A stretch of 64,000 nt of DNA from Octopus sinensis. Its lineage: Eukaryota. The DNA lies in NCBI RefSeq assembly GCF_006345805.1, contig NW_021831849.1, positions 235,188-299,187 on the forward strand, written 5' to 3'. A program made the translations under genes and the position numbers. A model generated the notes under the pieces. The model was given only the letters and a program-made list of their open reading frames with translations. It was not told where the DNA came from and did not search any database. The number at the start of each line of letters is the position of its first letter. The stretch's first letter is position 1. Of the stretch, positions 18,905 through 64,000 are shown in pieces.

Positions 18905-19655
18905 GAATGTTTCATAAAATGAAAAAATTATTTAATGTTATTAATTAATTTGTTATATATAAATGTAGTGATGATAAGAGCCAGTAAAGAATTTAAAGTG
19001 AAAGAATTTATCCGAAATTTTAAAATGAAATATATTTCTCAAACGGATATTATTTTTAGTTAAAAATTATGGATAGATAGTCTGAAACAACAGCAGATTC
19101 CAAGGGGATTACCCGACCATTTTCTAGTTCTATCGATTAAATTTCGGATATTCAGATAATTTTTATTTAAAGGAGTAACAAATTCAAAACCTAAAATTTT
19201 ATTTATTTAAGAGGTTAACAACTTCTTAAAATATAAGGAATTAATTTAGAATTCCACAAATTCGCTAGGAAGCCAAAATTGAACTGCAGTGAAGTAATCC
19301 AATATTTTGAATATAAAAATCCAGAGAAAAAACAAAAGCAAAAATCAAAAAATAAATTAAAATAAAAAACTTCTAAAAATGCTAAAATGGCTAACAAACG
19401 TGAAAAAGTATTATCTTCCAAATGTGAGATGCTATTCTCTGTTAATATTTAGTTTTCTGTAATCAAATTGACACATATTGATAAAATGAAGAATAGTATT
19501 TGTGATAATGAGAAAATATTTTTCATTGTAAAATTGTACTTCGAAAAATGTTAAACCTAAAGAAAAAATAGTTGGAAGCAACAAAAGATCTTATTATATT
19601 CTCCCAAAAAAGTTGTCTAGACCTGGTGATTCGTTTCCAAATCAATTTTAATTAG
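18905..19655 (+). pseudogene. Diverged long-hinge HP1-like relic
   Basis: ECFIK*KNYL|DD..EPVKNL chromodomain remnant with the same intron 1; chromoshadow remnant LTHIDKMKN...IFFIVK|...; stops and frameshifts. Confidence 0.6.
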
Positions 19656-20049
19656 ATTTGATTTTAGAACTTTTGTGGACTCCCAGGATAATATAGAAAA
19701 GTTGATCAAACATCAAAGGGAATCATAATTATGATCAACTCTAAAGTCCTTTATAGAAATCTTTTTGGCGGATAGACAACCCGCAGATTGACGTATCGAC
19801 TCCATCAACGTAGGTGAAGTATAGGAATAACTCTCTCTGATTAGAAGGTTTAGCTTCATATCGGGAATAACTATCCCCGATTAGAAGGGAAGGGAATATA
19901 ATTTATTAATTGCAAATAAAAACAGTCCAACCACTGTAAAAGTAAAACGATGACTGTAGTGAGGCTAGATGGTCCTGAAAATCTCATTCAAATTTTACAT
20001 ATTCATATATTAAGCACTGATAGAAATAAATTCTGTATAAATATATTTA

Positions 20050-20230
20050 GTAAATCAATTTGACCAATTTGATAAAAAAATACATTTTATTTGTAAAAAT
20101 GAAAATATATTTTTATATAACCTTAAGAAAAACATTTGAAACCATAAAAAGATTCCATTAGATTCTCTACGAGAAACGTATCGGGTCCTATTGATTAATT
20201 TTCTGATAAGTCAAATCAATTTTAATTAGA
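20050..20230 (+). pseudogene. HP1-like gene 3' fragment (chromoshadow exons)
   Basis: Nucleotide similarity to 24060-24268. Confidence 0.7.
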
Positions 20231-20499
20231 TATAATTTGAAACTTTTGGGCTAATGAATTATTTTCTCTTTTTCACATTTAATTATAAAATACTTATTTT
20301 TCTACCTTTGAATTAATCAACCAGATGTTTACATGACCCCATCTTGAATAAGAATTGACACAATCTCTCACGTATTTAAAAGATTTAGAAGAAAAATCAC
20401 TGTGTTCAAAATATTAATTCTTAATTTATTGCACGAATATAAATTTCGTTGTTTAGTTTCCAATTTTGTCAAAACCTCGTATAGTTGCTTTCTTTATTG

Positions 20500-20975
20500 T
20501 CCGTACTACCCCTATTGACAAAACACTAATTTTGATGCGCGGTACAAACCGACGATCTCGCCTGCCAATCAGTCGCATGTCGTAACGAAATTAGACGCTA
20601 CTAACACAATAGCAAACTAAACCAGATTATTCTTCTGTCACTTTGGAACCCCCAGTTAGTCTGGATTCCACGTTCAACTGGAACCTAGGAGGATATTTGC
20701 TGGAGATGGCAGAAGACCCGAAAAAAATGATGACATTTACCCACCAAAAAGGAAAGTGTCAGGGTTGAGAAGTTTTCTGCGTGAATTCTTTTTTCGACCA
20801 GAATATCTGTGAATTATTCAAAACCTCCTTGAGGACATCCAAACAAACTTAACCGGAGAAGCGCGAGAAATATGGTGATGTCGGGAATGGGCAGAGAATT
20901 TGTTCGCATGAATTTGATATTTCTGAAATACAGTAGTGGCCTTCAAATTGTAGCCAGTTCCGAAAGATCGGGTTT
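20500..20975 (+). repeat. Degenerate CRE-like retrotransposon REL-endonuclease fragment, co-amplified downstream of HP1-like copies (also ~22580-22975, ~24510-24985, ~41000-41415, ~61880-62270)
   Basis: Plus frame GFHVQLEPRRIFAGDGRRP...KGKC...KYGD aligns to the CRE C-terminus at 38768-39478 (GFPTELEPVGLDRGDGKRPDG...GKCLAWD). Confidence 0.75.
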
Positions 20976-21287
20976 TTATGGAAAGAGGGATCGCAGATTT
21001 ATCAGAGAGAGATATCTGGCCGAACGAGTTTTGTGCAAAAAATTTTAAATTACATTTAATTAAAATTAATTTGAATAATTATAAAATAAATCTCTATGAC
21101 GTAACAGATATTTTGGAAAAACTGTACATGAAGCATGATATAACTAAAAATACCGTTCAAATTTAGCATTTTAATAACTTACGTTCAGTTAAAAATGAGT
21201 TCTGTTTTAATATATTATAGATTTAATTTTTTTCTATTTTAATAACAATTGATTCATTTATCATGTTGTTAGATACTTTCTGATGGT

Positions 21288-21707
21288 CTTGCTGAAGAGT
21301 ATGCCCTGGATACTGGATTCAGCCGTCGTGGTTCGAATCCAGAAGAGGCTACTTTGGAGTCGGGTTAATCTCGTCGTCGAGTTCCTTTTGCCCGTGGGTG
21401 ACGAGTACATCTGGCACGACACAGTATGTCAAAAAGGGATCTCCTTCCTATCCGGCCTTAGAAAGGCGTTCGTGGTCCACCAATTTCACTTGGAGATTTC
21501 GACTGGATTTAGAAACGCCGAGGGGGCACCTAATGCTCACCGAAAAAGGACCAATAGCTCTCCTACCCCTGGACATCGTCGTCGCAGGACGATGCACTTT
21601 GCATAGGATTGAACCTTTCGGAGGATCTCCGTCGATGCGTCGGATCACACGCTAATTAGTTCGGTCTTAACTGTGGTCTTGGTGTTTAATAATAAATAAA
21701 TAAATTA
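21288..21707 (+). mobile_element. GC-rich LINE 3' end inserted at the start codon of an HP1-like copy
   Basis: Flanked by ATGGT on both sides and ends in an (AATA)n tail. A similar 3' end GGTCTTGGTGTTT..AATA occurs at ~62635. Confidence 0.55.
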
Positions 21708-21708
21708 A

Positions 21709-22425
21709 ATGGTACAACCTATCAAACGAAAAAATACAAATAGTGAATTCGAGGTTGAAACGATTCATTTATTGAGAAAAATAGATAGAAGCAAAAAGAA
21801 TATCTTATAAAATGGAAGAATTATTCACTGTTATCTGATAATTTGTTTATATAAATTTAGTGAGGAAAATATATGAGAACCCATAACAAATTTGAACTGT
21901 TATGAACATATTGGAAATTTTGAAAATAAAAACTTGCACAGATGGATCCACTTGATTTGTTAACTCTCTTTCTCTTTCTAAATAAAGTGCGTTTCCGGCT
22001 TATTGGAGAAACCTGGTAATGGTAACATTGCCAAGTCAATTCAGAAAAGGCTCTTAAAAAAATAAAAAATAATAAAAATCATGATACTAAAAAACAACAT
22101 CTGAATTACCAAAATAAATTAAAATTAAATACTTCTAAAATCAACAAATTGGATAACAATCATCAAAACCTTTTATCTTTTACTAATGTAAGATTCCAAT
22201 TCATGTTATATTTCAGAGTTCTGAAATCAATTTGACAAAAATTGATAAAAAAATATTACTCGTAAAAATGATAATATATTTGTTTATGTAAAATTGTATT
22301 AACTTTATAACATAATTTTAAGACAAAACATTCGAAAGTGACGAAAGATTACATTGGAGTCTTTACGAGACACATTTCCAGTCCTATTGATTAATTTTTT
22401 GATTTGTCGAATTAATCTTAATTAG
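21709..22425 (+). pseudogene. HP1-like chromo+chromoshadow pseudogene
   Basis: Homologous to 23693-24268; frameshift in exon 1 and an insertion of ~130 bp at ~21940-22065. Confidence 0.85.
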
Positions 22426-23489
22426 ATGTAATTTGAAATCCTTTTCCCTAATGAATAATTTTTTCACATTTAATCATAAAATACTCATCTTTCTAACGTC
22501 GACTTAATCAACCAGATCAATCTCGAATAGACGATTGACACAATCTTTGACAGATGTTAAAAATTGTAGAAGCAAAATGCCTGCTACACATTCGCATGTC
22601 TTAACGAAATTAGAAGCTCCTACCACAATACCAAACTAGACCAGATTATTCGCCAGTCACATTGGAAATGCTTGATTCTATTCTCAACTGGAACCGAGTG
22701 GGATATTTGCTGGAAATGTCAGACGGCCCGATAAATGACGACATTTACTTCTCAATAGGGAAAGTATCTGGGTTGAGAAGTTGCCTGCATGAAATTTCCT
22801 ATTATACCTAAATATGAGTAAATCATTCAATACCCTGAGCCCATCCAAACCAACCTAGTGAAAGAAATGTGAGAAATGTGGGAATTTCATGAATGGCAGA
22901 GTATTTGTCCCCATGAAGTCTATACCTCTGGAATACCGTGACCTCCAATTATAGTTTTTTCGAAAGATCGGACCAGAACTACTTAATTACGGTATTGAAA
23001 ACTTACATGTACATATTGCCGACTTTTTAAACGGAATGTTAAAAAATGACCATTTGCTCTTGATACTGACCCTGTCCAAAAACAGAAAAAAACTAAAAAA
23101 AGAATTCAAACCAAACTATAAAGGAACGATCAAAAAGCTGCACTTTATCTTTTCTATCTGCTTTGTGCATGAACAATATATGCCAAAAAATACCGTTAAA
23201 ATTTAGCATTTAATAATTGAAGTTTTTCACGCGCAAGCCCAGGGTCAAAATCTAAGTGCGCAATCATGATCTTCGGGAGGTGGATTGAATTTTTCAGCGG
23301 TTCTCGATTGCCGTTATCCGGAGGAACAGTTTGGCGATCCGTCAGACTGATGGCCTCCTTTTCGATTAATCTTTTAACACTTTTTTTTTAATTAAAATTA
23401 GTTTTATTAATGAAAGGACTGGAAAAAATTGTCATTGGCAGATTGACAGAGTATTGCCACTGACTATGGCTATAGATATTTGTTCGGTT

Positions 23490-23530
23490 AAATACCGGTC
23501 CTCACACGGGTCGCCGGTAAAAAACTAGCT
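23490..23530 (+). mobile_element. Helitron-like 3' terminus (hairpin + CTAG)
   Basis: ACCGGTCC...GGTCGCCGGT imperfect hairpin followed by AAAAAACTAG. Confidence 0.45.
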
Positions 23531-23692
23531 ACATTCCACGTTTAACTGAAACTTTTGCAAAATATGTTAAAAATATTAAAAAAATTACGATCAGTTAAAA
23601 ACAAGTTCTGTTTTAATATATTTTTTGATTTAATTTTTTTCTTTTTATAAATAACAATTGATTCAAATTTATTTGTCGTTAAATACTCGCTG

Positions 23693-24268
23693 ATGGTACA
23701 CGCTATCAATCGAAAAAATACAAATAGTGAATTCGAGGTTGAAGCGATTCATGGAGTGAGAATAAATAGAAAGAAGCAAAAAGAATATCTTATAAAATGG
23801 AAGAATTATTCAATGTTTTTTGATAATTTGTTTATATAAATTTAGTGATGATAATACATGGGAACCCGTAACAAATTTGAACTGTTCTGAACTTATTGGA
23901 GATTTTGAAAATAAAAATCATAATACTAAAAAACAAAATTTCAATTCCCGAAATAAATTAAATTTAAATACTTCTAAAATCAAAAAATTGGATAGCAATC
24001 ATCAAAAGCGTTTATCTTCTACAAATGTAAGATTCCATTTTATGTTATATTTCAGTGTTTTGAAATCGATTTGACACATATTGATAAAATAACAAATATA
24101 GTTCGTGAGAATGATAATATTTTTTTTAACGTGAAATTGTATTTACTTTACTATATAATTTTAAGACAAAACATTCGAAAGCAGCAAAAGATTCCATTGG
24201 AATCTTTACGAGATACGTGTCCAGTCCTATTAATTAATTTTCTGATCAGTCGAATCAATTTTACTTAG
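23693..24268 (+). CDS. HP1-like chromodomain + chromoshadow protein, intact, 162 aa, 4 exons
   Basis: Introns 23815-23845, 24027-24055, 24139-24165. Product [61 protein letters not shown]...CFEIDLTHIDKITNIVRENDNIFFNVKLQ...LRDTCPVLLINFLISRINFT. Aromatic cage F/W/Y is intact. Confidence 0.9.
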
Positions 24269-24984
24269 ATATAATTTGAAATCCTTTTTGCCTAATGATT
24301 TTTTCCACATTTAATCATAAAATACTTATTTTCCTACTTTGGAATTAATGACCTTATCTCCAATAGACAATTGAAAAAATCTCTAACAGAATTTTAAGAT
24401 TGTAGAAGTTTTTAAAAATATTAATTTTTAATTTATTGACAAATATAAATTTCGTTGTTTAGTTTTTAATTTTATAAAAAGTCTCGTATAATTTTTTTCT
24501 TTATTGTCTATCTACCCTTATTGATAAGACACTTATGGGGATACGAGCTTACCAAATTCGCATGTCTTAACGAAATTAAAATCTTCTACTACAATAGTAA
24601 ACTAGACCTGATTATCCTCCAGTCACTCTGGAAATGCTCGATTCTACTCTAAACTGGTATAGACCAACAAGACCAAAGCGCATGTCGCAACGAAATTGGA
24701 CGCGCGTAGCACAATAGCGAACTAGACAAGATTATTCTCCAGTCATTATAGAACCCCCAATTAGTCTGGATTCCACGTTCAATTGAGAAGTTTTCTGCGT
24801 GAATTCCTTTTTCAACCAGAATTTTTGTGAAACATTTAAAAACCCCCTTGAGCAAATCCAAAGTAACTTAAGGGGAGAAGCGCAAGAAATATGGTGATGT
24901 TGGGAATGGGTAGATTATTTGCTCGCATAAAATTGATACGTCTACATTGGCTTTCTAATTGTAGCTATTTTTGAAAGATCGGGT

Positions 24985-26875: not shown

Positions 26876-26989
26876 ATTTAGGAATTATGGATTTCAAATA
26901 TACAAATGGATGGATGGATCGATTTAAGAGAAGGCATAACATTGAAATCCATATATTATGCATGATATAACATTAAAATTTTGATTGTA

Positions 26990-27212
26990 TGCTATAAAAT
27001 AAAAAAAAACAAATATTGACTTTGAGGTTGAAGCGATTCATGGAGTGAGAATAAATAGAAAGAAACAAAAAGAATATCTTATAAAATGAAAGAATTATTC
27101 CATGTTTTTTGATAAGTTGTTTATTTAAATATAGTGATGATAATACATGAAAACCCGTAAGAAATTTAAACTGTTCTGAACATATTGAAGATTTCGAAAA
27201 TAAAAATCATAA
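26990..27212 (+). pseudogene. HP1-like chromodomain-only fragment inside a Tigger remnant
   Basis: DFEVEAIHGVRINRKKQKEYLIK*K; both Trp codons are TGA. Confidence 0.8.
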
Positions 27213-28020
27213 TGGAATTAATCAACCAGACGTTTGTTTACATGACCGCATCTTGAATAGACGATTGACACAATCTCTGACGGATGTTAAAAATTGTAAA
27301 AGCAAAATTTGTCATGTCAAAACTAATAACACTAAAAATTCGAGAAAAGAAATTGTGATCAAATTCTATTAAATCAACTGATTTTAACATTGAATATTAA
27401 TGATGAGATGGATGTCAACGAATATGGTGAGGTGGGCAGTAATGCTAAAACATACTGTAATATTGAAGAAGAGCAAATATTGTTTATACTTCGAAGAATC
27501 AATGACAGTGATAAAGAAGACATAAAAGAAGACTTTACTAAAAAAGACCCTCTGAAAGTGAAATAGCTAATGCGTTCGAAGTTATTCTGCGTGGGATCGA
27601 GTTTACTCAAGGGATGTCAGAAAAAAGCTTACAATATATTAAACTTATTAAAAGGGAATATGGGGATTGTCCAAAAATTAGTTATAGACAGTCAACGATT
27701 GTGAAGTTTTTTTAATAAATATTAAATATTTTATGTCTAATTAATTTTAGCGAGGTCGCGTTATAATGCCACCCCGCTTATTGCCATGAAATATTTGGTT
27801 TTTTGCGTTACAATGTAGATAGGTTTAAATGTATTAGTTCTTAATTCATTTGACATATATAAATTCTGTTGTTTAGTTGCATGATTATTAATTTCAAAAT
27901 CTTGTCTAAGCTTACTTGATTTAAATTTTTAACTGGTTTCTATGTATAATCCTATCATAATATTCGTGATTTGTCAAATAATATTGAAAAGTTTTTCAAT
28001 TTTATTTTTTTTTCTTTTCA

Positions 28021-30137
28021 AGGGGCCTCGGCAGATCAAATTCGAAGGCTATAGATCCCTCCACACTCCATGGAGGTCGAGGGCGATTGCGGGAACGGGA
28101 TTCTCGCTCTACTACAAAGCCGACATTGTTGTAAAGAACTTGAGGATCCTTGAAGAGAACCGATGCGAACTGATCGCACTAGAACTCCTAACTTCCATTG
28201 GATGGATAACAATCGGTGGAATGTACTCGAAGGACCTCAGAAACCTACCCTGAAGTGATCAGGAAGTTCTTTGAGGATAATGAGATGGCCATTCTTGCGG
28301 GAGATCTCAACGCCAAAAATACCGCTTATGGATGCGAGACCTCTAACCAAGATGGTCGGGCTTTACTGAGGATCTCGAGGAAATATGACCTTAATGTCTG
28401 GACTTCTGAGGAACTTAATCATTTCTGCTTCAGTGGAGGTGATCGCCTCGGACTATTTCTTTCTTCCGCGTCTGTTAGCCCTTTTTGCGACAGGCCCCGG
28501 ATAGAACTGCGTACTGGGAGTGACCATCTGCCCCAATCAATGTTGTTGCGGACATCTACGGCGTTGGTATCAGATCTCTTCACTGGATACGACTTGTCCC
28601 CTGTGCAATGGCCCATGTTCGTCATATTCATGGGTGCAGCTTTGGAACCTCTCTCCCACATGCATCTGTCCACGAGTGAAAGTATATGGCCATACGAAAG
28701 CATGTGGTGGCCTTTCTGGACAGATTCGCTTCTAAAAAACATATGAAATCCCAGAGATCTTGCGTGAAGAGGTCCGAAACTAGACTATCTGAGCTAGTCA
28801 GAGACAAGGCGCGACTGGAAAGCAAAAGAAGGAGGTGTTTCGAATCTGAGGACTCTGGAAGTCTAAAGGCCCGAATCAACACCCTGAAGAGTCGGATCGA
28901 CGAGCTGACTAAAGCTAACACAGATGAGGCATGGAAGAGAGAATGCTTAAAACTCAACAAGAAAAATCCTAAATTCTGGAAACTATACAAAATAATGAAC
29001 GGGACGGAGGCGAAAGGTGAAGAAATCATTCTTAAATCGGTGGATGGAGGCTTTGTTCCTACTGAGGAAGTCCCGGAGGTCTTCCGCCAGCGGCTAGCAG
29101 GGATTCAGGAGGTGGACCCCTAGTCTATCCTGCCTCTGAAAATATTCGAGGAGTCGACCCGAAATTCCCGCTCAAAATTTGTTTTGGATGGACCCTTGTG
29201 CATGGAAATAACCACGGAAGAGACGTTCGAAGCAATCAGAGGTTGCAAGAACAACGCTTCTGGATTTGACTTCATCCCTATGGAGGTGTTCAAGTGGAAA
29301 TTTGTTATCGAAGGCCGTGAATCTGAGGAGAGGTGTTCCTCAAGGATCGGTTCTCAGCCGCTTGCTCTTCAATATATTTCTGGCCGACGTCCCGAAACCA
29401 CATTTTCCTACGAGCAGACTAATTATCTACGCGGACGATATCCTGGTTACGGATGTCTCGATGTGGGGACCCCGACACAGAAGAAGGTTGTCTTAGAGCA
29501 GACTAGAACCGTACTTGGAAGAAATTGAAATCTGGTGCAATGGTAAAGGCTTGAATCTCGCTCGGGACAAAAGTACCATTTGTTGGATTTCAATGGGTCG
29601 TGACAAAAAACCGACTTTCGAGGATTATGGGAACCTGATTATATCAAAGAACCTACGTTACCTGGGAGTAACTATAGACCCCACCGGGTCATACAAACCC
29701 CATGTGCATGCAAAGCGGAAACAAGGAGCGAAAATCCTAAAAGGACTGAGGCGTTTTTGTCTAAGCGCAGAAACGTTTCTACACATCTACCAGACTTGTG
29801 TTCAGGCACTAATAATCTATGGTTCGGAGGGCTGGTACCAAACTGATGAAAGGGACCTTCTAATCGCCAAACTCGAAAAAACCAGACGATTTGCCATCAA
29901 ACTGGCATTCGGCCTGGAGCTCAGCAGTCCGCTGGAGGACCTGCATGAGCGGAGTGTTGACACGATAGACGCGATCCTGGCAAAAACTCGAATTCGCTGA
30001 GGGAGATAAGACAGTCTCCTGGGGCAAAACCGAAGTTGAGACCTGCGTGGCTCTCGTTATCAGCCCCCTAAGCTCTAATTCCTCGGCCACTTTTCTTTTG
30101 GAGCTATTGTATTAAATAAACCATATTCTTCTTCTTC
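28021..30137 (+). mobile_element. 5'-truncated, internally deleted LINE (APE endonuclease + RT; Jockey/I-like)
   Basis: ILAGDLNAK and GSDHLP (APE); GVPQGSVLS and YADD, RYLGV (RT); (TTC)n tail. 15-bp TSD TTTTTTTTCTTTTCA at 28006-28020 and 30138-30152. Empty site at ~44600. Confidence 0.92.
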
Positions 30138-30914: not shown

Positions 30915-31320
30915 AAGTCAGTAAATACGAATTTAAAGAGAATCTTCGGGTATTGACGAATGCTTTAAAATATATGGAACTGTTTTATCAGAAGTGGATT
31001 CAACTCTAAGTGATTGCAGAAAATGCTCAACTCCTCGAAATAATAAATTAACTTGAGATGCCACAACATCAGATTCCGGAGATATCACATAAAAACGCTT
31101 TTTAGACACATCAATGTACCAAACAATTCCTAAAACTAATCTTGACTTATTTATACCAAATCCGAACAGTCACATAAAATATTCGAATCAACCATTCCTG
31201 ACAAATTTTCAACTTTTTTGATCTAAAATTAAAAAAATAATAAACTTCGTCATTATCCACTTTACAGAGAGCAATCCATGTACCGTTGAATGCACGTAAA
31301 TACTTGTAAATATAAAAATG
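30915..31320 (-). pseudogene. Duplicated 3' fragment of NOL9
   Basis: Copy of 45674-46080 that lacks the 5' part of the gene. Confidence 0.85.
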
Positions 31321-37164: not shown

Positions 37165-37523
37165 GTTATGACTTAAAAGATATCCTAGGATAAAATCTAT
37201 ATTTGACTTCGGATATTTTTTCTTGAAATTTAATTCAAAACAAAATACAATTTTACATTAAGTACAGTAGTAATTACCATACTCTGTCAATTTTTCCATC
37301 CTTATATTTTTAACAGAAAAAACGGGATTATTGGGAACACTTTACCCTTTCTATCTGCACTGTGTATAAACAATATATGCGAAAAAATACCGTTAAAATT
37401 TAGCATTTTTATAATTCACGTTCTGTTAAAAATGAGTTCTGTTTTAATATATTTTAGATTTAAATTTTTTCTTTTTATAAATAACAATTGATTCAAATTT
37501 ATCTTGTCGTTAAATACTCTCTG

Positions 37524-38530: not shown

Positions 38531-38767
38531 TTTTTTTTAAAATTAAATGCCATTATATCATTATCGATTATGAATCAAACTTAAGGTGTGCAATTAACAG
38601 ATTCCACGACCTTGATTAAAATGTGCAATTTTATAATTTTTAAAAACACTTTAACAATTATAATAACATTAGCACAATTAGCACAATTATTAACACAATT
38701 GACAATCAATTGACAGGGCAATTAGAAGAATTTTCGTATAAATATTAACTATTTATTTAGACCTACA

Positions 38768-39478
38768 TTGGATCAGCATCGCCTCGCTTGTTTCGGTGCC
38801 GCTGCCAGACCTGAAAGTGGGGCGTGGCTTAATGCCCTCCCTTGCTCCCAATCTGGAACCCTTCTCGATAATGACTGTGTGAGGATTGGCGTAGCAATGC
38901 GCTTGGGACTTAATGTCTGTTCGGGGGGCCAATGCCGATGTGGGAGTAAAGTCGATACCAAAGGACTACATCCCCTGTCATGCAGAAGGAGTGCTGGCCG
39001 TGCTCCCAGACACTCCGCTATCAACGAGACTATTTCGGCTGCGTTACAAGCAGCTGGATTCCCGACAGAACTGGAACCCGTTGGGCTTGACCGTGGAGAC
39101 GGTAAACGCCCAGATGGAGTCACCATTTTCCCGTGGAGTAATGGGAAATGCCTCGCGTGGGACTCCACGTGCACAGACACCTTCTCAAAGACCAATATAG
39201 TTGACTCCGCGATCAGTCCAGGCTCAGCCGCTGAGAAAGCTGAGGTACATAAAGTTCAGAAATATTCCAACCTGCTGGACAACTTTATCTTCTCCCCAAT
39301 ATCTGTAGAAACCTCCGGGGCCATGAGCCAAAAATCGTTTGAACTCGTCGTTAAAATCGGGAATCTGATCTCGAGAAGACGGAGAGAGCCTCGGGAGAAG
39401 CAATGGTTGTTCCAAAGAATATCCATTGCGATCCTGAGGGGCAACGGCTTCTCGATCATCAGCAGCTTAAGATTATGA
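38768..39478 (+). mobile_element. CRE-like non-LTR retrotransposon, 5'-truncated (CCHC + restriction-like endonuclease)
   Basis: Open 236-aa frame: SGAWLNALP...CRCG...HPLSC...RH...KRPDG...LAWDSTC...KY...VETSG...RISIAILRGN. Confidence 0.9.
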
Positions 39479-40295: not shown

Positions 40296-40720
40296 TGGTA
40301 CAGGCTATCAAACGAAAAAATACAAATAGTGAATTCGAGGTTGAAACGATTTATTGAGTGAGAAAAATAGATAGAAAGCAAAAAGAATATCTTATAAAAT
40401 GGAAGAATTATTCACTGTTATTTGATAATTTGTTAATATAAATTTAGTGAGGATAATACATGGGAACCCATAACAAATTTGAACTGCTCTGAACTTATTG
40501 GAGATATTGAAAATAAAAATCATAATACTAAAAAACAAAATCTTAATTCCCGAAATAAATTAAATTTAAATACCTCTAAATCAAAAAATTGGATAGCAAT
40601 CATCAAAAGCGTTTATCTTCTACAAATGTAAGATTCCATTTTATGTTATATTTTAGTGTTCTGAAATCAATTTGACACAAATTGATAAAATAAAAAATAT
40701 TATTCGTGAGAACGAAACAT
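40296..40720 (+). pseudogene. HP1-like pseudogene, 3' deleted
   Basis: Homologous exons 1-3; start mutated to GTG, frameshifts, exon 4 missing. Confidence 0.85.
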
Positions 40721-41464
40721 TTTTTTTGAAACCTTTTTGGCTAATGAATTATTCTCTCTTTTTTCACATTTAATCATACAATACTTATCTTTCTACTTCG
40801 GAATTAAACAACCAGATGTTTACATGACCCCATTTTAAATAGACAATTGACACAATCTCTCATGGATTTAAAAGATTTAGAAGCAAAATCACTGTTTTTC
40901 AAAATATTAATTCTTAATTTATTGCAAAAATATAAATTTCGTTGTTTTGTTTCCAATTTTGTTAAAAACCTCGTATAGTTGCTTTCTTTATTATCCGTTC
41001 TATCCCTATTGACAAGACACTAATTTTGATGCGCGGTACAGACCGACGATCTTGCCTGCCACTCAGTCGCATGTCATAACGAAATTAAATGCTCCTAGCA
41101 CAATAGAAAACTAAACCAGATCATCTGTCAGTCACTCTGGAACTTCTTGATTCAACGCTCAACTGGAACCGAGTGGAATATTTTCTCGAGATTTCAAGAG
41201 GTACGATAAAATGATGACATTTCAATTCTTAAGAGGAAGTGTCTGGGTTGAGAAATTAGTTACATGAATTCCTTTTTCAACAATAATATGTGTGAATCAT
41301 TCAAAATTCCTTGAGCCGATCCAAACCAATTTAATGGAATAGCGCGAGAAATATACTAATGTCAGGAATTGCAGAATATTTGTTTCCATAATGTCGATAC
41401 GTCTGGAATACAGTGGAATGAATGATCGGCAATTTATCATAGCACATTAAAATGGGGAAAATAA

Positions 41465-42600
41465 GTCATGGAACGCGTATCTTTTTTTTCATTTGACATG
41501 AGTAATTGCACTAACATAATTTTGTGTTATGAAGTTTGTATTATTGACGTTATAGACAAATAAAGAAATTATAGCGTTTCTTAAAGATGATGTATTCCAG
41601 ATGGGGTAGCTTAGAATCACATTGATTCGAATTTTAGTAGGACGGCATCATTCTTCAGATTGTCCGACTCTCCGAAACACATAGTTTATTTTAACATATC
41701 CGAGATCTTATTACGTACCTTAGCTTTGAGAAGGTAGAAGAAAAGAAAATATTTATCAAAAATCTCCATCTAACTAAAGGGCAACATGGACGAGACAAAC
41801 TGCTTTTTCTTCTTTAAGATACTGTTTATGGATCTTGTAGAAGTGGGGTTATGTCTGTTCTCAAATCCTGTTGTCAATGTCAGGCAAGAAAGCTTATGAA
41901 CACCATGCCAATAATTAAGGTTATAAGAGCCTATAGAGTGAGAGAAAGGTATCACTATTTAGTCTAATATTAGATCAATTTTCGATCTAACGGATTTACG
42001 TCATTATGCACAGAGAACGAAAATTATGCATTGGTTTTGGTTTGAATACTGTGGAATGGATGATCGGGAAGTGTCCAACGCAATAAATAAAAAAATATTA
42101 ATGTTTAGAAAACCCTTAATTTTTCATACGAAAAATGGAAAGGAATTTGTCAACGAAAAAATTTCCCGATTATGCGAGGAGTACAGGATAAAGCATGTAA
42201 GAGGTAGTGCAAGGTGCCTCGTTCTCAGCGTGCTATCACACAAAACCGGTGACAATTATTAACATAGGATAGCAGCCTAAATTTGCTGAGGATGGTACGT
42301 TTTTAACCTTATTAGAAAAAAAAATTACTTAAAAAATACGAAATTACATCCAATTAATATTTATTTGAGTATAGCCCTTGCAAATTTCTTGTTGACAGTT
42401 TAATGGGATCTCATGTTGCTTCTGACCTATTTGTAGGCTTAACTATATACCAAATACAATTTTAGTTTATAATTTTTTCCCAATTTTTACGGATAATATT
42501 CATTATTTTCTCAATTTGTGTCTTTTTGATTCTAGAATTGTGCGAAATTAACGTAGAATAGAATTTCACATTTGTAGGTAAAAGCGTTCCACGTTTGTTA
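41465..42600 (+). mobile_element. Degenerate Ginger/KRBA2-like integrase element
   Basis: PLIFHTKNGKEFVN...IKHVRGSARC (rve-type). Short terminal inverted match TGGAACGC/GCGTTCCA. Sibling on the minus strand at ~58200-58900. Confidence 0.65.
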
Positions 42601-42623
42601 ATTAGTTTATTGTTATTATAAGT

Positions 42624-44419
42624 AAACTTAAACCCCTCTATAATCCTATCCCCTTATAATGGCACTCCGCTTATAGCCACAACATTTTTTGGTTCTTCTT
42701 TGAATTTCTCTTTATAATGCCAAACCCTGCCACTCAGTTATTGCCACGCCAAATTATGTGCCTTATCCGATATAAAGCCATTCAAATTTTTAAATTATTA
42801 TTTTTAAGTCGTATAAATTACACTAATTTATTATTGCTTTGAGACTTATAACGTGTATACATCTATGTACCGACTATGATAGTTGGGCATAAGAGACGAA
42901 GATTGGAAGAAGAAAAATAATCAACATCACTCTTCTGTATTTTTATTTTAAAATTTAAATTAACCGGTTATAGGTTACGTGATATTAGCACTTAAATTGA
43001 GAGAATGGTAAATAGTGAAATCTGTAGAAGACTATCTCTTAATTTTAAGCATAAAAACGAAATACTTGAATATCATAACAATAATAAACATAAAACTCAT
43101 AAGGAAATTGCTGATCACTTCTCAAAAATATGGAGACTATTTGTCAAAAGAAGGACTGTTTGTGAAATACTACGACACAGAGAGAAATTAGAAAACTTAA
43201 ATGATTATAACTCAAAAGCTAAGCACACTAAATCTGGGAAGCATTTGGATTTGGAGGAAGCTCTTTTGATTTGGTTTGTAAACAAAAGGTCTCAAAATAT
43301 TGTTTTGAATGATGAAATATTACGGAACAAGCAAAAAAATTTGGAAAAGATTTAGGAATTATGGATTTCAAATATTCAAATGGATGGATGCATCGGTTTA
43401 AGCGAAGACATAACATTGGAATCCATATATTTTATAAATCCATATCAATTTGATGTTAGAAATCATTCGAGTAACGAGAATTATTTCCCAAATTGGCTGA
43501 AGGTGGTAGTTTTTACGCTTTTTATCAATTTTTCTATTTTTATTTTTGTCACAGAAAAAATACACTCTGATTGTATGCTATAAAATGAAAAAAAAACAAA
43601 TATTGACTTTGAGGTTGAAGCGATTCATGGAGTAAGAACAAATTGAAAGAAACAAAAAGAATATCTGATGAAATTAAAGAATTATTCCACGTTTATTGAT
43701 AAGTTGTTTATTTAAATACAGTGATGATAATACATGAAAACGCGTAAGAAATTTGAACTGTTCTGAACATATTGAAGATTTTCAAAAATAAAAATCATAA
43801 TACTATTGGAATTAATCAACCAGACGTTTACATGACCGCATCTTGAATAGACGATTGACACAATCTCTGACTGATGTTAAAGATTGTAAAAGCAAAATTT
43901 GTCATGTCAAAACTTATAACACTAAAAATTCGAGAAAAGAAATTGTTGATCAAAATCTATTTAATCAACTAATTTTAACATTGAATATTAATGATGAGAT
44001 GGATTTCAACGAATATGGTTAAATGGGCACTAATGCTAAAACATACTGTAATATTGAAGAGCAAATATTGTCTACACTTCGAAAAATCAATGACAGTGAT
44101 GAAGAAGACATAAAAGAAGACTTTACTAAAAAAGACCTTCTGAAAGTGAAATAGCTAATGCATTCGAAGTTATTCTGCGTGGGATCGAGTTTACTCAAAG
44201 GATGTCGGAAAAAAGCTTACAATATATTAAACATATTAAAAGGGAATATCGGGATTGTCCAAAAAATAGTTATAGACAGTCAACGATTGTGGAGTTTTTT
44301 TAATAAATATTAAATATTTTATGTTTAATTAATTTTAGCGAGGACGCGTTATAATGCCACCCCGCTTATTGCCATGAAATATTTTGTTTTTTTCGTGGCA
44401 ATGTGAAGAGGGTTAAGTG
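42624..44419 (+). mobile_element. Tigger/pogo element with CENP-B-type HTH ORF, centre replaced by an HP1 chromodomain fragment
   Basis: TIRs AACTTAAACCCCTCT / AGAGGGTTAAGTG+TA; LEEALLIWF...FKYSNGWMHRFKRRHNI. Confidence 0.8.
43575..43805 (+). pseudogene. HP1-like chromodomain-only fragment
   Basis: Sister of 26990-27212; contains stops. Confidence 0.8.
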
Positions 44420-45673
44420 TATTAGTTCTTAATTTATTTGACAGATATAAATTCTGTTGTTTAGTTGCATGATTATTATTTTCAAAATCTTGTCTAAGCT
44501 TACTTGATTTAAATTTTTTACTGGTTCCTATGTATAATCATACCATAATATTTGTGATTTGTCAAATAATATTGAAAAGTTTTTCAATTTTATTTTTTCC
44601 TTTTTATCCTCACTAAATTTATTAGTATTCAGACACCAATTACTCAATGGGTTATGAATTATCTGCACTAGATGCACACCATAAGATATTGGAATCTCAA
44701 CACATTCGTGGAAGTCGCATCCCACGCGAGTGATCGGTCTTTTAGAAGGAAAAGATTTCAGAGATCCCAAGGAATTTATATTCCTTATTCAGAGGATCTC
44801 GCTGGCTGTTTTACGCGGGAATTGTCTCTAATCCTGCGAGCCTGCACTTAATAACTAGATTATTCCGTTTTTATATTTAGTTATTAATGATTTGGTTATG
44901 GTCCAACAATTCAATAAAATTAGTTAGTTAGTACTTCCGAAAATAAAAATCATAATACTATTGGAATTAATCAACCAGATGTTTACATGACCGCATCTTG
45001 AAATTTGCCATGTCAAAACTTATAACACTAAAAATTCGAGAAAAGAAATTGTTGATCAAAATCTATTGAATCAACTGATTTTAACATTGAATATTAATGA
45101 TGAGATGGATGTCATAAGCATTAAAGTGCCTAAGTTTTCGTTCATGACGTACTCTCCACTATCCTCCCAGTCAGTCTTTTCCATCCAGTCTTGTTCCTCG
45201 CTCGTTTGAGAATGTCTTCAAGATCGTCACCGGTTTTGAATCGGTCGCCAATTCTCGCGTAATCATCCCTCAGGCAGAGAGGAAGCGTGCGTCCAATCCT
45301 GTTATACAACTCGGGAACTTTGACGCTTTTCATAGAAATGGACCTTCACAGACTAGACGCTTTTCATAGAAAGCAATTAGAAAAATCGTGGGTATCAAAT
45401 GGCCACAGACCATCGAAAACGACACTCTCAATAAAATTCTGTCAATAAGTAAAAGATTTTCCCAACAAATTGCCAAACGTAATTAAAATATGCCAACTGT
45501 GAATTTCATTAGGATTTAATATAATTATTCACAAAATAAATCTTTTTAGAACGTTTTAAATGACAAACGCGTTTATTGTCTCAAAAACTCAGAAATAATA
45601 TTCTTTATAGTGACATTATTAGCATATCAACTACTCATATAAAAAAGAGACAGTAGGTAAATACGAAAAAAAG

Positions 45674-47452: not shown

Positions 47453-47540
47453 TAATAAACAACAAAACAAATAACGTGAAAATATTTTTTTATTTTAAAA
47501 TTATTTATTAATTTTATTTAAATTTAATTATAAAATAATT
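47453..47540. promoter_or_regulatory. Putative bidirectional promoter of NOL9 and TELO2 (88 bp)
   Basis: Divergent ATGs at 47452(-) and 47541(+) separated by a very AT-rich spacer. Confidence 0.55.
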
Positions 47541-50814: not shown

Positions 50815-51032
50815 GACTTCCGAAGTTTTGGATAAGTTCACCACAGTTCAAATTCCTTAAAGGTTCTCGAATATTTCCATCACTAAGCTTATATAAGCAA
50901 ATGATCATATAAAATTGAAAAATTTTCCATTTTATGAAATATTTTTTTACTTTCTTTTCACTTATTCTCATTCCATGAATTGACCCAACTTTAAATTCAG
51001 TATTTTTAACATTTCGTTTAATAACAATATTT
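50815..51032 (-). pseudogene. Diverged HP1-like chromodomain fragment in inverted orientation
   Basis: KRNVKNTEFKVGSIHGMRISEKKVKKYFIKWK..|..DGNIREPLRNLNCGELIQNF with the same intron 1 position. Confidence 0.75.
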
Positions 51033-53604: not shown

Positions 53605-53800
53605 TAATTCATGAAATGAGAATAAATAGGAAAGGAAAAAAAGAATATCTTATTAAATGGAAGAATATTCACTGTTATATGATAATTTGTTTATATAAAT
53701 TTAGTGATGATAATACATGGGAATGTTCTGAGCTTATTGATGATTTTAAAAAAAATCATAATACTAAAAAACAAAATCCAAATTACCTGAAATAAATTAA
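53605..53800 (+). pseudogene. HP1-like chromodomain fragment
   Basis: IHEMRINRKGKKEYLIKWKN..|DDNTWECSELIDDF with an internal deletion. Confidence 0.8.
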
Positions 53801-54498
53801 AATTCGAATTCAAAATCCGAATTACCAGATTTTCAGTGATTTCTCTTCTTCGCTTGGAAGAAAAGTTTTCCATAAACTTTCTTTCATTCTCTATTTCTGC
53901 GTCAATAAATTTAGTCAATTGAGTGTCCTCACGACATTTGTTTTCTTTTTATAAATAACAATTAATTAAAATTGATCTAATTGTTATATTCTGAAAAAGT
54001 TGATCAAACTTCAGGGGGAATCCCTAATTAAAAAGATCAACTTAAAAGTCCTTCAGACGACTCTCTTAGCAGCCTGGACAACCCGCACATTGACGTATCG
54101 TCGTCATCAACGGTGCTGAATTATGGCAATAACTCTCCTCAATCAGAATGCTTGCTCTCATATTTCAAGACAAACTTTTTTAATGGTCAACGGAAACAGT
54201 GAAACCACTGTAAAAGTAAGGCGGCGACCGTTGACAATTTAGCCACTTAATGCTGGAGTATAGTTTACCATGGAAGTTATAACGAGGTGATGAGATTTCT
54301 CGATCTTCTGCTCTGCAATAAGTATGGCTTGAGGCGAATTCATAGAGTTCTATCGGTGTCTGAGAATTTTAATAATAGCATTTTAATAATATACGTTCTA
54401 TTAAAAATGTGTTTTGTTTTAATATATTTTAGATTTAAATGTTTTTCTTTTTATAAATAACAATTAATTAAAAATTATCTGATTGTTATATATTCTCT

Positions 54499-54620
54499 GA
54501 TGGTACACGCTATCAAACGAGAAAATACAAAAACTGAATTTGAGGTAAGCAATTCATGGAGTGAGAATAAATAAAATGAAGCAAGTTATATTTCAGTGTT
54601 CGGAAATCAATTTGACACAA
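54499..54620 (+). pseudogene. Heavily deleted HP1-like copy
   Basis: Retains the upstream flank and MVHAIKRENTKTEFEV, then jumps to the exon 3 acceptor. Confidence 0.75.
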
Positions 54621-54887: not shown

Positions 54888-57205
54888 TATTATTATTATT
54901 AGCACTGTCATAGGAACATAATGTAATTTAAACTAATTAAGTTCCCACATGTGCCACATATGAGACTATCTTTTCGGTCATAATTTTCCATGATGTGCGG
55001 TTGTATGCTATACTCCTGAGAGTATCTAGGTCGTCTCCATTTTTCAGTTGTCTTTTAACGCGTTGTAGTTCTTTTGAGATTACAATAGGTAATGTATTTC
55101 GTGGGCGTCCTCGGGACGCAGATCTTTCGTCCTTTGCGTAATATGATTCCATTGCCCAGTTAGCATAAACATCCTGGTCGAGTCTTAGAATGTGGCCCAA
55201 TAGGCGCCAACGTGCTTCGGTAATGTCCACACTGACGGGTCTGCTGTTGCAGATATTGTATAGGGTGGAGTTCTTGATTTTCTTTGGCCAGTTGATGCCA
55301 ATAAGAATTCTTAACTGTCTTCTATGGAATGCATCAAGAGATTTTGATTCAGACTCAGATATTCCCCATGTTCCTCCGTTGTACAAAAGTATGGGTTTAA
55401 TAAAAGCATTGTATAATTTGGCACGTAAGGCCGTTCCAACCTCGCGGTTTCGTAGCCAAGTGGTCCGCAGTTTGTTAAGTGCAACAGTCGATAGCATCTT
55501 TCTCCTCATAATGTCTTCACTATCTCCTAAAAGAGTTCCAACTTTTTTCGAGTTTCGCCATTTTTCGTCTGTTCTATTTGCCTCCCGGTTGATTGTTACA
55601 TATTCGGTTTTTTCTATGTTCACTTTTAAGAACCATTTTTCCAGTGCCTGAGGAGCAATGTTCAGCAGTTCTTCGAGTGTCGACTTATCATGAGACAAAA
55701 AGTCTACATCGTCGGCATATATCACTTCAGTTATTGAAGTAGTCTTCACTAGTTTTCTCAGATCTCTTAGTGCCGCTTCAAGATAGACAATGAATAGTAC
55801 AGGTGATATTGAATCACCTTGGGGCGTTCCAATGCTTGTTTTGAAAGATCTTGATTGTACGGGTCCGATCTTCACCGTTAACTCGGTGTCTATAAGTAGT
55901 GCTCGAACCATTCTGATCGAGTCATTGTCAAGAATAGTTTTGAGGATCTCCATTAGCTTGTCTCTGCGGATTGTATCAAATGCCCTGCTCATATCAATGC
56001 CCAATATTGTGGTCGCCATTTTAAATTTCTGAGATATGGCACAGATCCATCTATGTCCCCATACTACATCTGCAGTTGATCGCCCAGGCCTGAATCCACT
56101 TTGGCTAGCCGACAGATATTCATTAACAGGGTCCTTAATACGTTCCAGTGTTACGAGCGAGAAGAATTTTCCTTATTGTGTTCAAGAGTATGATTGGGCG
56201 AATGTTGTTAAGAGGACCTTGCGGCTTGTTGGGTTTTTGGAGAGGAATTAGCGTTCCTTTCCCAATAGGCGGTATGGTATTTCCATGGAACATCTCGTTC
56301 AGGAGATTTGTGATTATAGTTGAGATCTCCATTGGGGAGTACTTTATCAATTCACCGTTGATGTTGTCTGGACCCGCCGCACGGTTGTTTTTTAATTTTT
56401 TTATAGCCTTCAAAACTTCAAGGTGTGTTATTTTGTTGTTTAGATAACGTTCTTCACCCTCATCGAGAGCATCGGCCCTGCCATTGAATAGTATTTCGAA
56501 GTGGTCGGCGATTGTATTTACCATTTCGATTGGGTTTCCAATTGTTTTCCCATGTTCATCGTGCACAACCAGTTTTGTTTTCTGTTGTCGTCGGCGTAGT
56601 AGTCTGATGGCTGCGTACATTTGCGCACCATCCTTTAAGTCTTCAACTTCTGATATTCGAGAGTTTAATAAAGCTTTCACGTATTTAAGATTTTCCTTCT
56701 TGATTGTTCTCGATATTTTCCTACGTTCTCTTTTGAGTTTTTCCTTTGCCTCCTTGTCGCTGGTGTGTTTTCAATTTTCAGTTGGATGGCTTTTTGTTTT
56801 GTTGCCATTTCGGCAACATTTGGATTCAATGGGTTTGAGTGGTTTCTGAATGCAGTCGTTCCAATGGTTTCCGTTGCAGCTTTGTGAATAAGTTTTTCTA
56901 ATATATCCCAGCTTTTGTTTGGGTCTTTTACCGTTTCTGTTACTTTTAGGTTTTCGATGATTGCCTGGGAGTATTTTTCCTTGGTAACATCTGATGTAAT
57001 CAGTTTTTCCACTGAGTATCTAATTCGGTTTGATTCATTTTCTTTTGAAAGAGGCGATCCAAAAATCTTTTCAGTCTCAATCGTGCCACAATGGCTTTGT
57101 GATCGCTCAGTGTAAGTGCCCCGCCATATGACCTGGCATCCAGCAATCGATGTTTTTCTTCTTGTCTACAGATGATATAATCGATTTGATTATAGATGTT
57201 GACGT
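54888..57205 (-). mobile_element. RTE-like LINE, 5'-truncated, few frameshifts
   Basis: NQIDYI (APE end), RAAGPDNI, RPIILLN, GIDMSRAFD, GTPQGDSISPVLF, IYADD, RWRLLGHILR, RGRPR; (TAA)n tail near 54890. Confidence 0.93.
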
Positions 57206-59169: not shown

Positions 59170-59582
59170 ACAATCACTCTCAACCGGTGACATTAATTAA
59201 TCCAGAAGAGGCATTGAAGATGTTAAATAAATTAAAGAAATTTTATTATCAAAATGAAAATTTTGATTTAAGTTCACTTGAATCAATTAACAACATGATC
59301 AGAAACTTACCTATGAAGAAAAAAACTATCGATGAAAATTTGGGAATTTCTTAACTTTTCTACAATTTGGGAATTTCTTAACTTTTCTACAATTTAAAAT
59401 TATATCATTTTAGATTATTAATCAGAATTTAATTACATTTATAATTTTTAAATTATTTTACATATATAATTTTCAATTTTTGGTGAACAACCGGAAGTGC
59501 AAAACCTCTATTGTCGCCAAATTCTAAATCCCGCCACGATTTGTTTGGTCCCAAAAAATGGCGAGATTTAGAGGTTTGACTG
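59170..59582 (+). mobile_element. Tigger/pogo 3' end
   Basis: Right TIR ...GATTTAGAGGTTTGACTG followed by TA; contains a 27-bp tandem duplication at ~59337-59392. Confidence 0.65.
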
Positions 59583-59584
59583 TA

Positions 59585-59695
59585 ATTTTAAGACAAAACA
59601 TTCGAAAGTAACGAAAGATTACATTGGAGTCTTTACGAGACACATATCAGGTCCAATTGATTAATTTTTTGATCTGTGAATTAATTTTAATTAGA
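59585..59695 (+). pseudogene. HP1-like last exon and 3' flank
   Basis: Near copy of 22315-22520. Confidence 0.75.
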
Positions 59696-61445: not shown

Positions 61446-61456
61446 TTTTGAGGTTT

Positions 61457-61756
61457 TAGACGGTGGTTTTGCTTGGGCGGAAAGGCAATCAGCTTCGTTC
61501 ATGAGATCGGGTCTTGCATGTCCGCTCTCACTGGCGACGTCCGCGAATCGAGATGGTTTTTCAAGCGGATATCCCTCGCGATAGTACGCTCTAACTCTTT
61601 CTCGATTGCGTCGGCCTCCCGCCCGTTTATTTAATCAAAGTTACCGAGCAAAAAACCATTTCAATTTTCGGGCGTCCCCTAGGAATGTCGATATTCGAGA
61701 CCCGATCTCCTGAACAAAGCTGACTGCCGTTCAGCCCAAGGAATTGCCGTTTCTAT
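61457..61756. mobile_element. ~300-bp GC-rich MITE-like element with ~60-bp imperfect TIRs
   Basis: CTTGGGCGGAAAGGCAATCAGCTTCGTTCATGAGATCGGGTCT pairs with AGACCCGATCTCCTGAACAAAGCTGACTGCCGTTCAGCCCAAG. Confidence 0.7.
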
Positions 61757-62689
61757 TTGCATTTGAGCTTCTAGTTCCTCTTCAAAACATTAATTTTAAA
61801 TTTATTTGACAATTATAAATTTTGTTGTTTAGTTTCTAATTTTATTAAAAACCTCATATAATTAATTTCTTTATTGTCCTCCTATTGACTAGACAGTAAT
61901 TTTGATGCGCGGTACAGACCGACGGTTTTGCGTGGTATTCAGTTGCATGTCGCAACGCAATTGGACGCTCCTATTAAAATAGCAAACTGCTCCAGATCAT
62001 TGGTCAGTTATTCTGGAACTGCTGGATTTTTCTCTCAAATAGAACCTAGAAAGAAATTTGCTGAAGATCGCAAAGGCCGAAAAAATGATGATATTTAACT
62101 TCAAAGAGAAAACTGTTTGGGTTAGAAGTTTCCTGTGAGAATTCCTTTTTATACTAGAATCTGTGTAAATTATTCAAAACTTTTTGAGCACATCCAAACC
62201 AAACTAAGGGGAGAAGCGAGAGAAATATGGTGATGTCGGGAATGCCAGAGTATTTGTTCCCATAAATTCGAAAATAAATAATTGTAAATAAATCTCAGTG
62301 ACGTAACATATATCTGGAAAAAATAAAATGAAATCTTTTTTGCTTTCGGATATTTTTTCGAGAGTTTTAACCCGAAACAAAATAAAATTTCATTTTAAAA
62401 ATAGGTTTTGCTATGACGAATAATATTTATTATTTTATAAAACCATATATATTTAATGTCCGGCTCTCTGGAAGACCCGATCAATCTGAACTTCAGTCTA
62501 TTTGCAAATGCTCCGACAAATGCGGTCATGCGTCCAGTGCGATCTTGTGTGGGTTTGTGGAAAGATTATATTCGTGAGGATGTTCACTGGTTAAGTGCAT
62601 TAGGATCAATGAAGTTTGTTTGGTTTTTACCATGGTCTTGGTGTTTTAATATATAAATAAATATTTAGTGACAAGCCCATCGGTAGGTC

Positions 62690-63450
62690 TGCAGCTCAAC
62701 TACAACAAGTCGCCGACTAACATCTTTTTCTGAGGTGACCTAGTCAAAGTCTTCGAGGAGTACCAAGGGTATAAGTATCTTGGTGTGGTTGAGAGCCTAG
62801 CCTCATTGATCACAGCCGAAACGAGAAAGTACATACTGGAGGGTGTGCGTAGTAGGGCGGCAATGTTATGCAAAACTTGCCTCAAAGCACTGAACTTATT
62901 TCATGGCTTGACCGAGTACGCCATTTTATTGCTAAACTAATACGTTAACCTGATCGAATTCGAGACGAGTGAGTGCGATGAAATGAATCTTACTGTCCAA
63001 AGAGTACTCCGAGAAAATCACGTCCACGTGTTGGGAAGCAATAAGGAGAGATTTTACTTGACTCGCGGGCAGCTAGGACGTGGATTGAGTAACATCGTAC
63101 ACTTAAGTGAGCGAATTCTTACTAAGATGCACGACACCTTGTGAAGTGGGTCGAGTGTATCCCAAAGGAAGGCTGCCATTCTTTGCTGCGGAAAAACGCT
63201 TGGTACACACCTAGGGACTATAAAAGGCTATGTCTCGGCTAAATATGATCTAGGTGCTAAAAGTTAATGTGAAAAAATTGATCAAACTTAGGGGGAATCC
63301 TAAATTAAAAGGATCAACTAAAAAGTCATTCAGACGACTCTCTTAGCAGCCTGAACAACCCGCACATTGACGTATCCCTCCATCTTCTGCTCTGCAATAA
63401 GTATGGATTGAGGCGGTCCAGAAAGATGCGAAGATGCGAATTTATAGTTC
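62690..63450 (+). mobile_element. R4/Dong-like non-LTR fragment (related pieces at ~19690-19960 and ~53995-54360)
   Basis: YKYLGV and ERFYLTRGQLGRGLSNI; the sibling carries HCKSKAATVDNLAT*C (zinc knuckle). Confidence 0.7.
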
Positions 63451-63598
63451 TATTGGTGTCTGAGAATTTTAATAATAACATTTTAATAATATACGTTCTA
63501 TTAAAAATGTTTTTTGTTTTAATATATTTTAATTTAATTGTTTTTCTTTTTATAAATAACAATTAATTAAAAATTATCCGATTGTTATATACTCTCTG

Positions 63599-64000
63599 AT
63601 GGTACACGCTATCAAACGAAAAAATACAAAAACTGAATTTGAGGTTGAAGCGATTCATGGAGTGAGAATAAATAGGAAGAAGGAAAAAGAATATTTTATA
63701 AAATGGAAGAGTTATTCACTGTTATTTGATAATTTGTTTATATAAATTTAGTGATGATAATACATGGGAACCCCTAAGAAATTTAAATTGTTCCAAGCTT
63801 ATTGATGATTTTGAAAATAATAATCATAATAAAAAACAAAATTTTAATTCCCAAAATAAATTGAATTTAAATACTTCTAAAATCAACAAATTAGATAGCA
63901 ATCATCAAAACCGTTTATCTTCTACAAATGTAAAATTTCATTTTATGCTATATTTGAGTGTTCGGAAATCAATTTGACACAAATTGACAAGATAACAAAT
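63599..64000 (+). CDS. HP1-like chromodomain protein, third open copy, truncated by the window end
   Basis: MVHAIKRKNTKTEFEVEAIHGVRINRKKEKEYFIKWKSYSL|DDNTWEPLRNLNCSKLIDDF... open through exon 3; the intron 2 acceptor is GAG. Confidence 0.75.

Follow-up and report, generated by a model that had tools for sequence, protein, structure and literature searches.

We analyzed a 64,000-nt window of the Octopus sinensis genome assembly GCF_006345805.1 (contig NW_021831849.1, here C8320); the right edge of the window is the contig end. The window carries an array of a small four-exon gene encoding a divergent heterochromatin protein 1 (HP1), and this array is real, formed by duplication at the DNA level with loss of most copies. 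The gene is present in about 25 copies in the whole assembly (2.7 billion bases), at least three of them fully open (162 amino acids). The contig very likely comes from a dicyemid parasite co-assembled with the cephalopod. With moderate confidence, we prefer the explanation that an HP1 paralog, likely functional and repeat-silencing, has undergone birth-and-death in this duplication-prone genome. Birth-and-death had been proposed in an initial annotation made from the letters of the window, and our results support it. Positions are window coordinates unless a contig or locus is named.

To count the copies, we searched the window by BLASTN with the gene at 23693 as query and found 17 copies or fragments. 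They comprise the 13 reported in the initial annotation, all recovered at or near their listed starts, and four further fragments on the minus strand, at 28018, 42624, 44593 and 62441. The minus-strand copy placed earlier at 50815 is present but spans 51023 to 50832. Shuffled windows gave no BLASTN match in 10 of 10 cases. A four-exon model with a product of 162 residues fits copies 23693 and 37524, with introns of 31, 29 and 27 nt. As had been described, these two are intact and the copy at 63599 stays open up to the contig edge. The remaining window copies bear stops, frameshifts, deletions or insertions. Introns are kept in every copy that spans them, supporting the DNA-based duplication argued for initially. 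The window copies compared are 81–96% alike in coding sequence and each has its own lesions; therefore they are not assembly duplicates. Direct units of about 2 kb do exist at 20–25 kb, but their homology is patchy (72–91%) and broken by different insertions.

Across the assembly at least 27 matches were found, on three contigs only: C8320, C12669 (eight copies) and the end of C8693 (one copy). Translated searches of the assembly found no other close family member outside these three contigs. On C12669, one copy is fully open (position 106) and three have only small indels, mostly in A/T runs. The other four are a copy with indels and a stop, one split by an insertion, and two short fragments. 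The C12669 copies are 99–100% alike, differing mostly by 1-nt indels in A/T runs. The two ends of this contig match at 97% over about 1 kb (1–996 versus 23878–24865) and may reflect a collapsed tandem unit, a circle or an assembly overlap. Because of this overlap, the copies nearest the two ends may represent a single locus. One copy is split by an AT-rich insertion (C12669:20110-20903, L030; about 790 bp), which contains a short TTAGGG run and had no other match in the sequence searched.

Judged by its sequence, the array protein is a true but divergent HP1. Against a cut-off of 25.1 bits, the chromodomain profile PF00385 reaches 30.2 bits in exon 1 and 18.4 bits in exon 2. F14, W36 and Y39, which we take to be the positions of the aromatic cage, are kept in each of the 10 copies whose sequence extends from the start codon to within exon 3, in agreement with the initial annotation. 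A chromoshadow profile built from 10 other HP1 models of the assembly, with the array excluded, gave 19.7–25.7 bits for four array copies; the best of 500 shuffles reached 5.0 bits. Compared with the canonical long-intron HP1 gene on C6, introns 1 and 3 agree in codon position and phase, and intron 2 agrees in phase. A chromoshadow model from a five-row alignment (predicted local distance difference test score, pLDDT, 75.8) has three strands and two helices. Its best fold match by VIA-align is the HP1alpha chromoshadow (Z 8.3, root-mean-square deviation 1.9 over 58 residues), tied with chromodomains. The HP1 identity proposed earlier is thus borne out by the Pfam chromodomain, the chromoshadow profile, the fold match and the shared intron positions. 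Membership in the Polycomb/CBX2-8 group was rejected: a C-terminal Pc box was not found, and a Pfam scan of exons 3–4 returned only Chromo_shadow, below threshold. A C-terminal chromoshadow is diagnostic for the HP1 family (PMC6188558).

Like CBX1/3/5, Su(var)205 and Swi6, the array protein has a chromodomain, a hinge, a chromoshadow and the cage residues. V16 is equivalent to V22 of HP1alpha; I152 and F161 presumably correspond to its I165 and W174. Roles of I165 (in the dimer) and W174 in the HP1alpha chromoshadow have been described (PMC6123478). Unlike in other HP1 proteins, the first tryptophan of the chromoshadow is a leucine, and in the last motif Y is replaced by L155 and W by F161. 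The canonical HP1 on C6 shares only 22 of 49 residues of the chromodomain and 9 of 53 of the chromoshadow with the array protein, in line with the divergent chromoshadow noted initially, and 9–15 of 51–53 chromoshadow residues are shared with any other HP1 model of the assembly. The protein is basic, with an isoelectric point of 9.6 versus 5.0 for the canonical HP1, and its hinge carries a net charge of +9. The array family has a long branch of 1.85 changes per column, and a close parent was not seen among the remaining HP1 models. We name no parent paralog because the 14-row HP1 tree resolved the array clade only. The sole chromoshadow match other than the array in the translated search was L058 on C8460 (E 0.67).

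The array copies are under moderate purifying selection. An MG94 fit on five open or near-open copies, with near-identical sisters and short or very degenerate fragments left out, gave an omega (dN/dS) of 0.49 overall (p=0.003). By domain, omega was 0.30 in the chromoshadow (p=0.0015), 0.49 in the chromodomain (p=0.13) and 0.66 in the hinge (p=0.43). Neutral simulations (n=12) ranged from 0.59 to 1.58, none at or below 0.49, and shifted-frame controls gave 1.42 and 1.64. Codon fits in IQ-TREE also reject an omega of 1 (p=7.5e-5). Passive hitch-hiking with dN/dS near 1, considered in the initial annotation, does not fit the overall value. Among these five paralogs of one genome, compared by domain with neither a site model nor orthologs, positive selection was not found overall. 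The fast adaptive evolution suggested earlier is so far unsupported, no domain having an omega above 1. Pairs within a clade appear unconstrained, on few changes: copies 23693 and 37524 differ by 14 replacement and five silent changes.

The array gene is also apparently expressed. Four public sequencing runs were compared with 18800–38700 of the window and three with C12669:3500-13499. Runs X2, X3 and X4 belong to a single study with no recorded library type, which bears on every result for spliced forms. A contig from X2 has an exon 2 identical to that of copy 37524 and is without introns 2 and 3. In a second X2 contig, introns 1 and 2 (31 nt, GT..AG, and 29 nt) are missing; it differs by one letter from the copy at 5727 of C12669 and is without that copy's four small indels. 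X3 has contigs in which exon 1 runs directly into exon 2, and one contig of X4 starts at the exon 2 boundary. At least two clades are thus represented by spliced forms. The initial annotation had named a lack of expression, together with dN/dS near 1, as a sign of passive duplication; instead, contigs without introns are found in three runs of one study. Processed retrocopies in the assembly were rejected. In the DNA run X1, which may be the source sample, there was depth in 30 of 30 bins of 18800–38700. Its depth is about 30 on unique pieces and about 500–640 at two exon positions; it yields no copy number and was not used.

Several lines of evidence place the window contig in a passenger genome that is very likely dicyemid. 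The window encodes a compact SMU1 that is at most 57% identical to the listed animal SMU1 proteins (267-residue query). Another SMU1 gene, with long introns, lies on C14; in two exons it is 95–97% identical to Argonauta SMU1, versus 54–59% for the window SMU1. RPA1 is likewise represented by one compact copy and one match on C25. The host has long-intron SMU1, RPA1 and HP1 genes of its own. The retroelement at 38729 has 41 matches in the assembly, none of them on C1–C30, and occurs on many passenger contigs at 97–99% identity. One 18S gene, on C1618, is 1,667 nt long, and further 18S copies measure about 2,600 nt (12 of 4495 candidates were scored). The published dicyemid primers R2 and F3 fit the 1,667-nt gene with 0 and 2 mismatches, versus 7–9 for each of 10 other 18S loci compared, all of them loci of this assembly. 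Dicyema introns have a median of 27 nt (PMC6543705), and among 51 animal genomes surveyed such tiny introns occur only in myxobolids and a dicyemid (PMC13644364). Introns here are of that size, mostly under about 30 nt: 31, 29 and 27 nt in the array gene and 23–27 nt in SMU1. Of 227 cephalopod samples, 172 contained dicyemids (PMC12953835). For an innexin on another small contig, identity to other records does not exceed 47%. Host cephalopod origin of the window contig was rejected on the two SMU1 genes, the window one being compact and divergent. The initial annotation had not noticed that the contig comes from a tiny-intron passenger, likely a dicyemid, and not from the main organism of the assembly. 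The passenger genome is substantial, with contigs of several hundred kb to more than 1 Mb (e.g. C8320, C8460, C8702, C9497, C12462 and C1794).

The small contigs encode at least eight other compact HP1 types, at 14 loci (L042-L050, L052, L058, L068, L069, L072), and two single-copy markers suggest that all come from one species. Among them are a trio with a chromoshadow alone, one whose chromodomain is truncated, and two for which the model places a GC-AG intron at the conserved position in the chromoshadow. Small contigs also carry Piwi-domain genes and a gene that combines a chromodomain with a cysteine-rich pre-SET-like stretch, presumably SUV39-like from its architecture. Innexins are heavily amplified, with dozens of clustered loci, many with stops (L110, L115-L137 and others). 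Three contigs carry a CHD3/4-like remodeller gene, four times in all and in similar form (L062, L065, L066, L082); one copy is broken. Because these genes are amplified as well, local amplification appears to be a general habit of the passenger genome rather than specific to HP1. The special selfish amplicon raised in the initial annotation is so far unsupported, these families being amplified on the same class of contig.

Under the birth-and-death explanation, transposon remnants would give rise to copies through unequal recombination or short segmental duplication between them, and stops, frameshifts and insertions would then inactivate the copies. Live copies are predicted readers of methylated H3K9, the chromodomain cage together with V16 binding methyl-lysine, and would help silence repeats. 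The basic hinge is predicted to bind DNA or RNA, and a nucleic-acid-binding role of the HP1 hinge is on record (PMC7465937). The chromoshadow would keep its fold and the dimer isoleucine I152, giving a predicted dimer; its partners probably differ because surface residues have changed (Y to L155, W to F161). The number of copies itself probably reflects mainly drift, in a genome prone to duplication, while selection maintains a few live copies.

Some results weigh against this explanation. The Pfam chromoshadow score is 14.4 bits versus a cut-off of 22.4 bits, from a query in which a 9-residue intron was read through. The fold match is partly circular because the alignment contained other chromoshadows, and the single-sequence fold model is poor (pLDDT 54.6). 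Protein searches with exons 3–4 gave none from 24 candidates and no match in 1.84 billion representatives, no relevant PDB sequence and only Atlas matches under 0.9; these blanks say little because the query held the read-through intron. Constraint on the chromodomain alone is not significant. Six broken copies have an omega of 0.59 (p=0.02), a value reached by one of the 12 neutral simulations. The spliced contigs come from a single study of unrecorded library type, and most match no assembled copy exactly, as alleles or unassembled copies would. As to origin, the dicyemid-like 18S lies on a contig other than C8320 with no physical link to it, and no dicyemid name is among the 120 listed matches for either the window SMU1 or the small-contig innexin.

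It is possible, if unlikely, that the amplification was driven by conflict, as for Drosophila Rhino and HP1D2, with copies chasing young transposons or selfish chromosomes in germ cells. The long branch of the family without a close parent, the retroelement shared at high identity by many passenger contigs, and the other compact HP1 types, with a chromoshadow-only type as in Diptera (PMC6188558), would all fit. Omega is below 1 in every domain tested, however, and amplification extends beyond HP1, whereas in Diptera it is selective, with 121 HP1 gains versus five in related chromodomain genes (PMC6188558). Diptera (Rhino/HP1D, HP1D2, the 29 HP1s of Mayetiola) do share recurrent gain and loss and single-domain half-genes, and their young paralogs a divergent chromoshadow and a large repertoire in one genome (PMC6188558, PMC3380853). 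In contrast to those paralogs, about 25 copies of a single paralog, most of them dead, lie at one locus here; positive selection was not detected, and further gene families have been amplified as well. We consider it quite improbable that all copies are decaying yet transcribed, the constraint being inherited from an ancestral functional gene. Most copies are broken, the broken ones have a similar omega, and the few within-clade changes are not depleted of replacements. Nevertheless, three clades separated by about 10% still contain open frames in which the cage is preserved, and no parental copy was found outside C8320, C12669 and C8693.

Another improbable alternative is that the protein could be a DNA-elimination reader, the dicyemid counterpart of ciliate Pdd1, whose high dosage would mark chromatin discarded as somatic cells form. 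Tetrahymena Pdd1 is an HP1-like protein in DNA elimination. Similarly, the array encodes a predicted HP1-like reader, and DNA elimination is reported for its likely lineage: chromatin elimination and circular DNAs are described for dicyemid somatic cells (PMC6543705, citing Noto 2003 and Awata 2006). The idea gains relevance because the contig is likely dicyemid. The overlapping ends of C12669 are as a tandem unit or circle would give, but are also a common assembly feature. The array protein differs from Pdd1 in having one chromodomain only and in its animal lineage, and the parallel is by analogy. Moreover, the other HP1 types are equally possible candidates, and the words 'elimination' and 'chromo' are absent from the main text of the D. 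japonicum genome paper (PMC6736024), as is 'chromatin' from the accessible text of a paper on dicyemid life stages (PMC6854800); the supplements of both may list HP1 genes. Full-text searches of the accessible literature found no paper joining dicyemids with programmed DNA elimination or with heterochromatin protein. That the array is an assembly artefact or a host cephalopod gene family is very improbable and, for the window, largely refuted. The near-identity of the C12669 copies, their 1-nt indels and the overlapping ends mean that this part of the count may be wrong. In the window, the copies are diverged with lesions of their own, X1 has depth in every bin (though it may be the source sample), and the host has SMU1, RPA1 and HP1 genes of its own.

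Birth-and-death remains our preferred explanation, and the copies lie among shared flanks, transposons and other genes (Table 1). The upstream flank is shared as had been claimed, with a length of about 110–140 bp rather than 150 bp. A shared downstream flank of up to about 700 bp holds a weak same-strand retroelement remnant as described, but the name CRE given to it was not assigned by any tool. With the open reading frame (ORF) at 38729, the best frame scores 6.0–12.4 bits in four of five downstream flanks and 4.4 bits in the fifth; the shuffled maximum was 5.5 bits (600 controls). CRE as a label for the 38729 element is our assumption from motifs, and an Atlas search with it returned unnamed eukaryotic clusters only. 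Between copies lie reverse transcriptase, endonuclease, Tc5, IS1595-like and hAT fragments, some below Pfam cut-offs. Housekeeping genes resembling NOL9 (46694-47840, minus strand) and TELO2 (48751-50635, plus strand) sit inside the array. A 3.1-kb duplication at 91% identity (15557-18684 and 31319-34412) has no detected HP1-like copy in it. Directly behind several HP1-like copies is a 92–95-bp satellite (L028:797-1690, 2916-3766; L030, C12669:19270-19520).

Table 1. Features of the window and their coordinates.
Feature	Position	Strand	Details
Intact HP1-like copy, 162 aa	23693..24268	+	introns 23815-23845, 24027-24055, 24139-24165; PF00385 in exon 1; spliced contigs
Intact HP1-like copy, 162 aa	37524..38099	+	coding sequence 96% identical to 23693; exon 2 as in X2 spliced contig
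Copy open to contig end	63599..64000	+	exons 1-2 and start of exon 3
Full-length broken copy	21709..22425	+	3 stops, frameshifts, 146-bp insertion
Broken copy	40296..40731	+	exons 1-3; fourth exon deleted
Old degenerate copy, two pieces	18904..19655	+	71-74% identity
Fragment, exons 3-4	20050..20229	+	BLASTN
Chromodomain-only fragment with stops	26991..27213	+	BLASTN
Chromodomain-only fragment with stops	43558..43805	+	within 1-kb duplication (93%) of 26982-28010
Degenerate inverted fragment	50832..51023	-	BLASTN
Exons 1-2 fragment with frameshifts	53607..53804	+	BLASTN
Exon-1 fragment and upstream flank	54500..54619	+	BLASTN
Exon-4 fragment	59566..59694	+	BLASTN
Inverted fragment, newly found	27861..28018	-	BLASTN E 6e-11
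Very degenerate inverted fragment, newly found	42452..42624	-	BLASTN E 1e-7
Inverted fragment, newly found	44429..44593	-	BLASTN E 2e-17
Very degenerate inverted fragment of exons 3-4, newly found	62327..62441	-	BLASTN E 5e-6
Compact SMU1 gene, origin marker	1590..3089	-	span without short last exon; introns 27, 23, 25, 24 nt
Shared upstream flank	37383..37523	+	also at 21146, 23583, 54376, 63476 and on C12669
Shared downstream flank, decayed retroelement remnant	40726..41414	+	also at 20237, 22578, 24276, 61781
Young non-LTR (long terminal repeat) retroelement, 3' part	38729..39478	+	presumably CRE-like, from motifs
Broken element like a long interspersed nuclear element (LINE), with endonuclease domain	28210..30000	+	PF14529
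Non-LTR reverse transcriptase ORF	54937..56172	-	PF00078, 97 bits

Turnover of HP1 genes is already known; what is new here is the unexpected lineage and the unusual single-locus form. Many small contigs of this assembly are probably parasite DNA and would mislead counts of cephalopod gene families such as HP1 and innexin. The dicyemid genome is described as reduced, with about 5,000 genes (PMC6736024), yet at least nine HP1 types are encoded by the passenger, among them the array type, which is amplified locally and apparently expressed. If true, the reading as a Pdd1 counterpart would be the first molecular handle on chromatin elimination in this phylum. These HP1 genes offer concrete candidates for studying how a repeat-rich genome is silenced in dicyemids, and whether dicyemids eliminate DNA.

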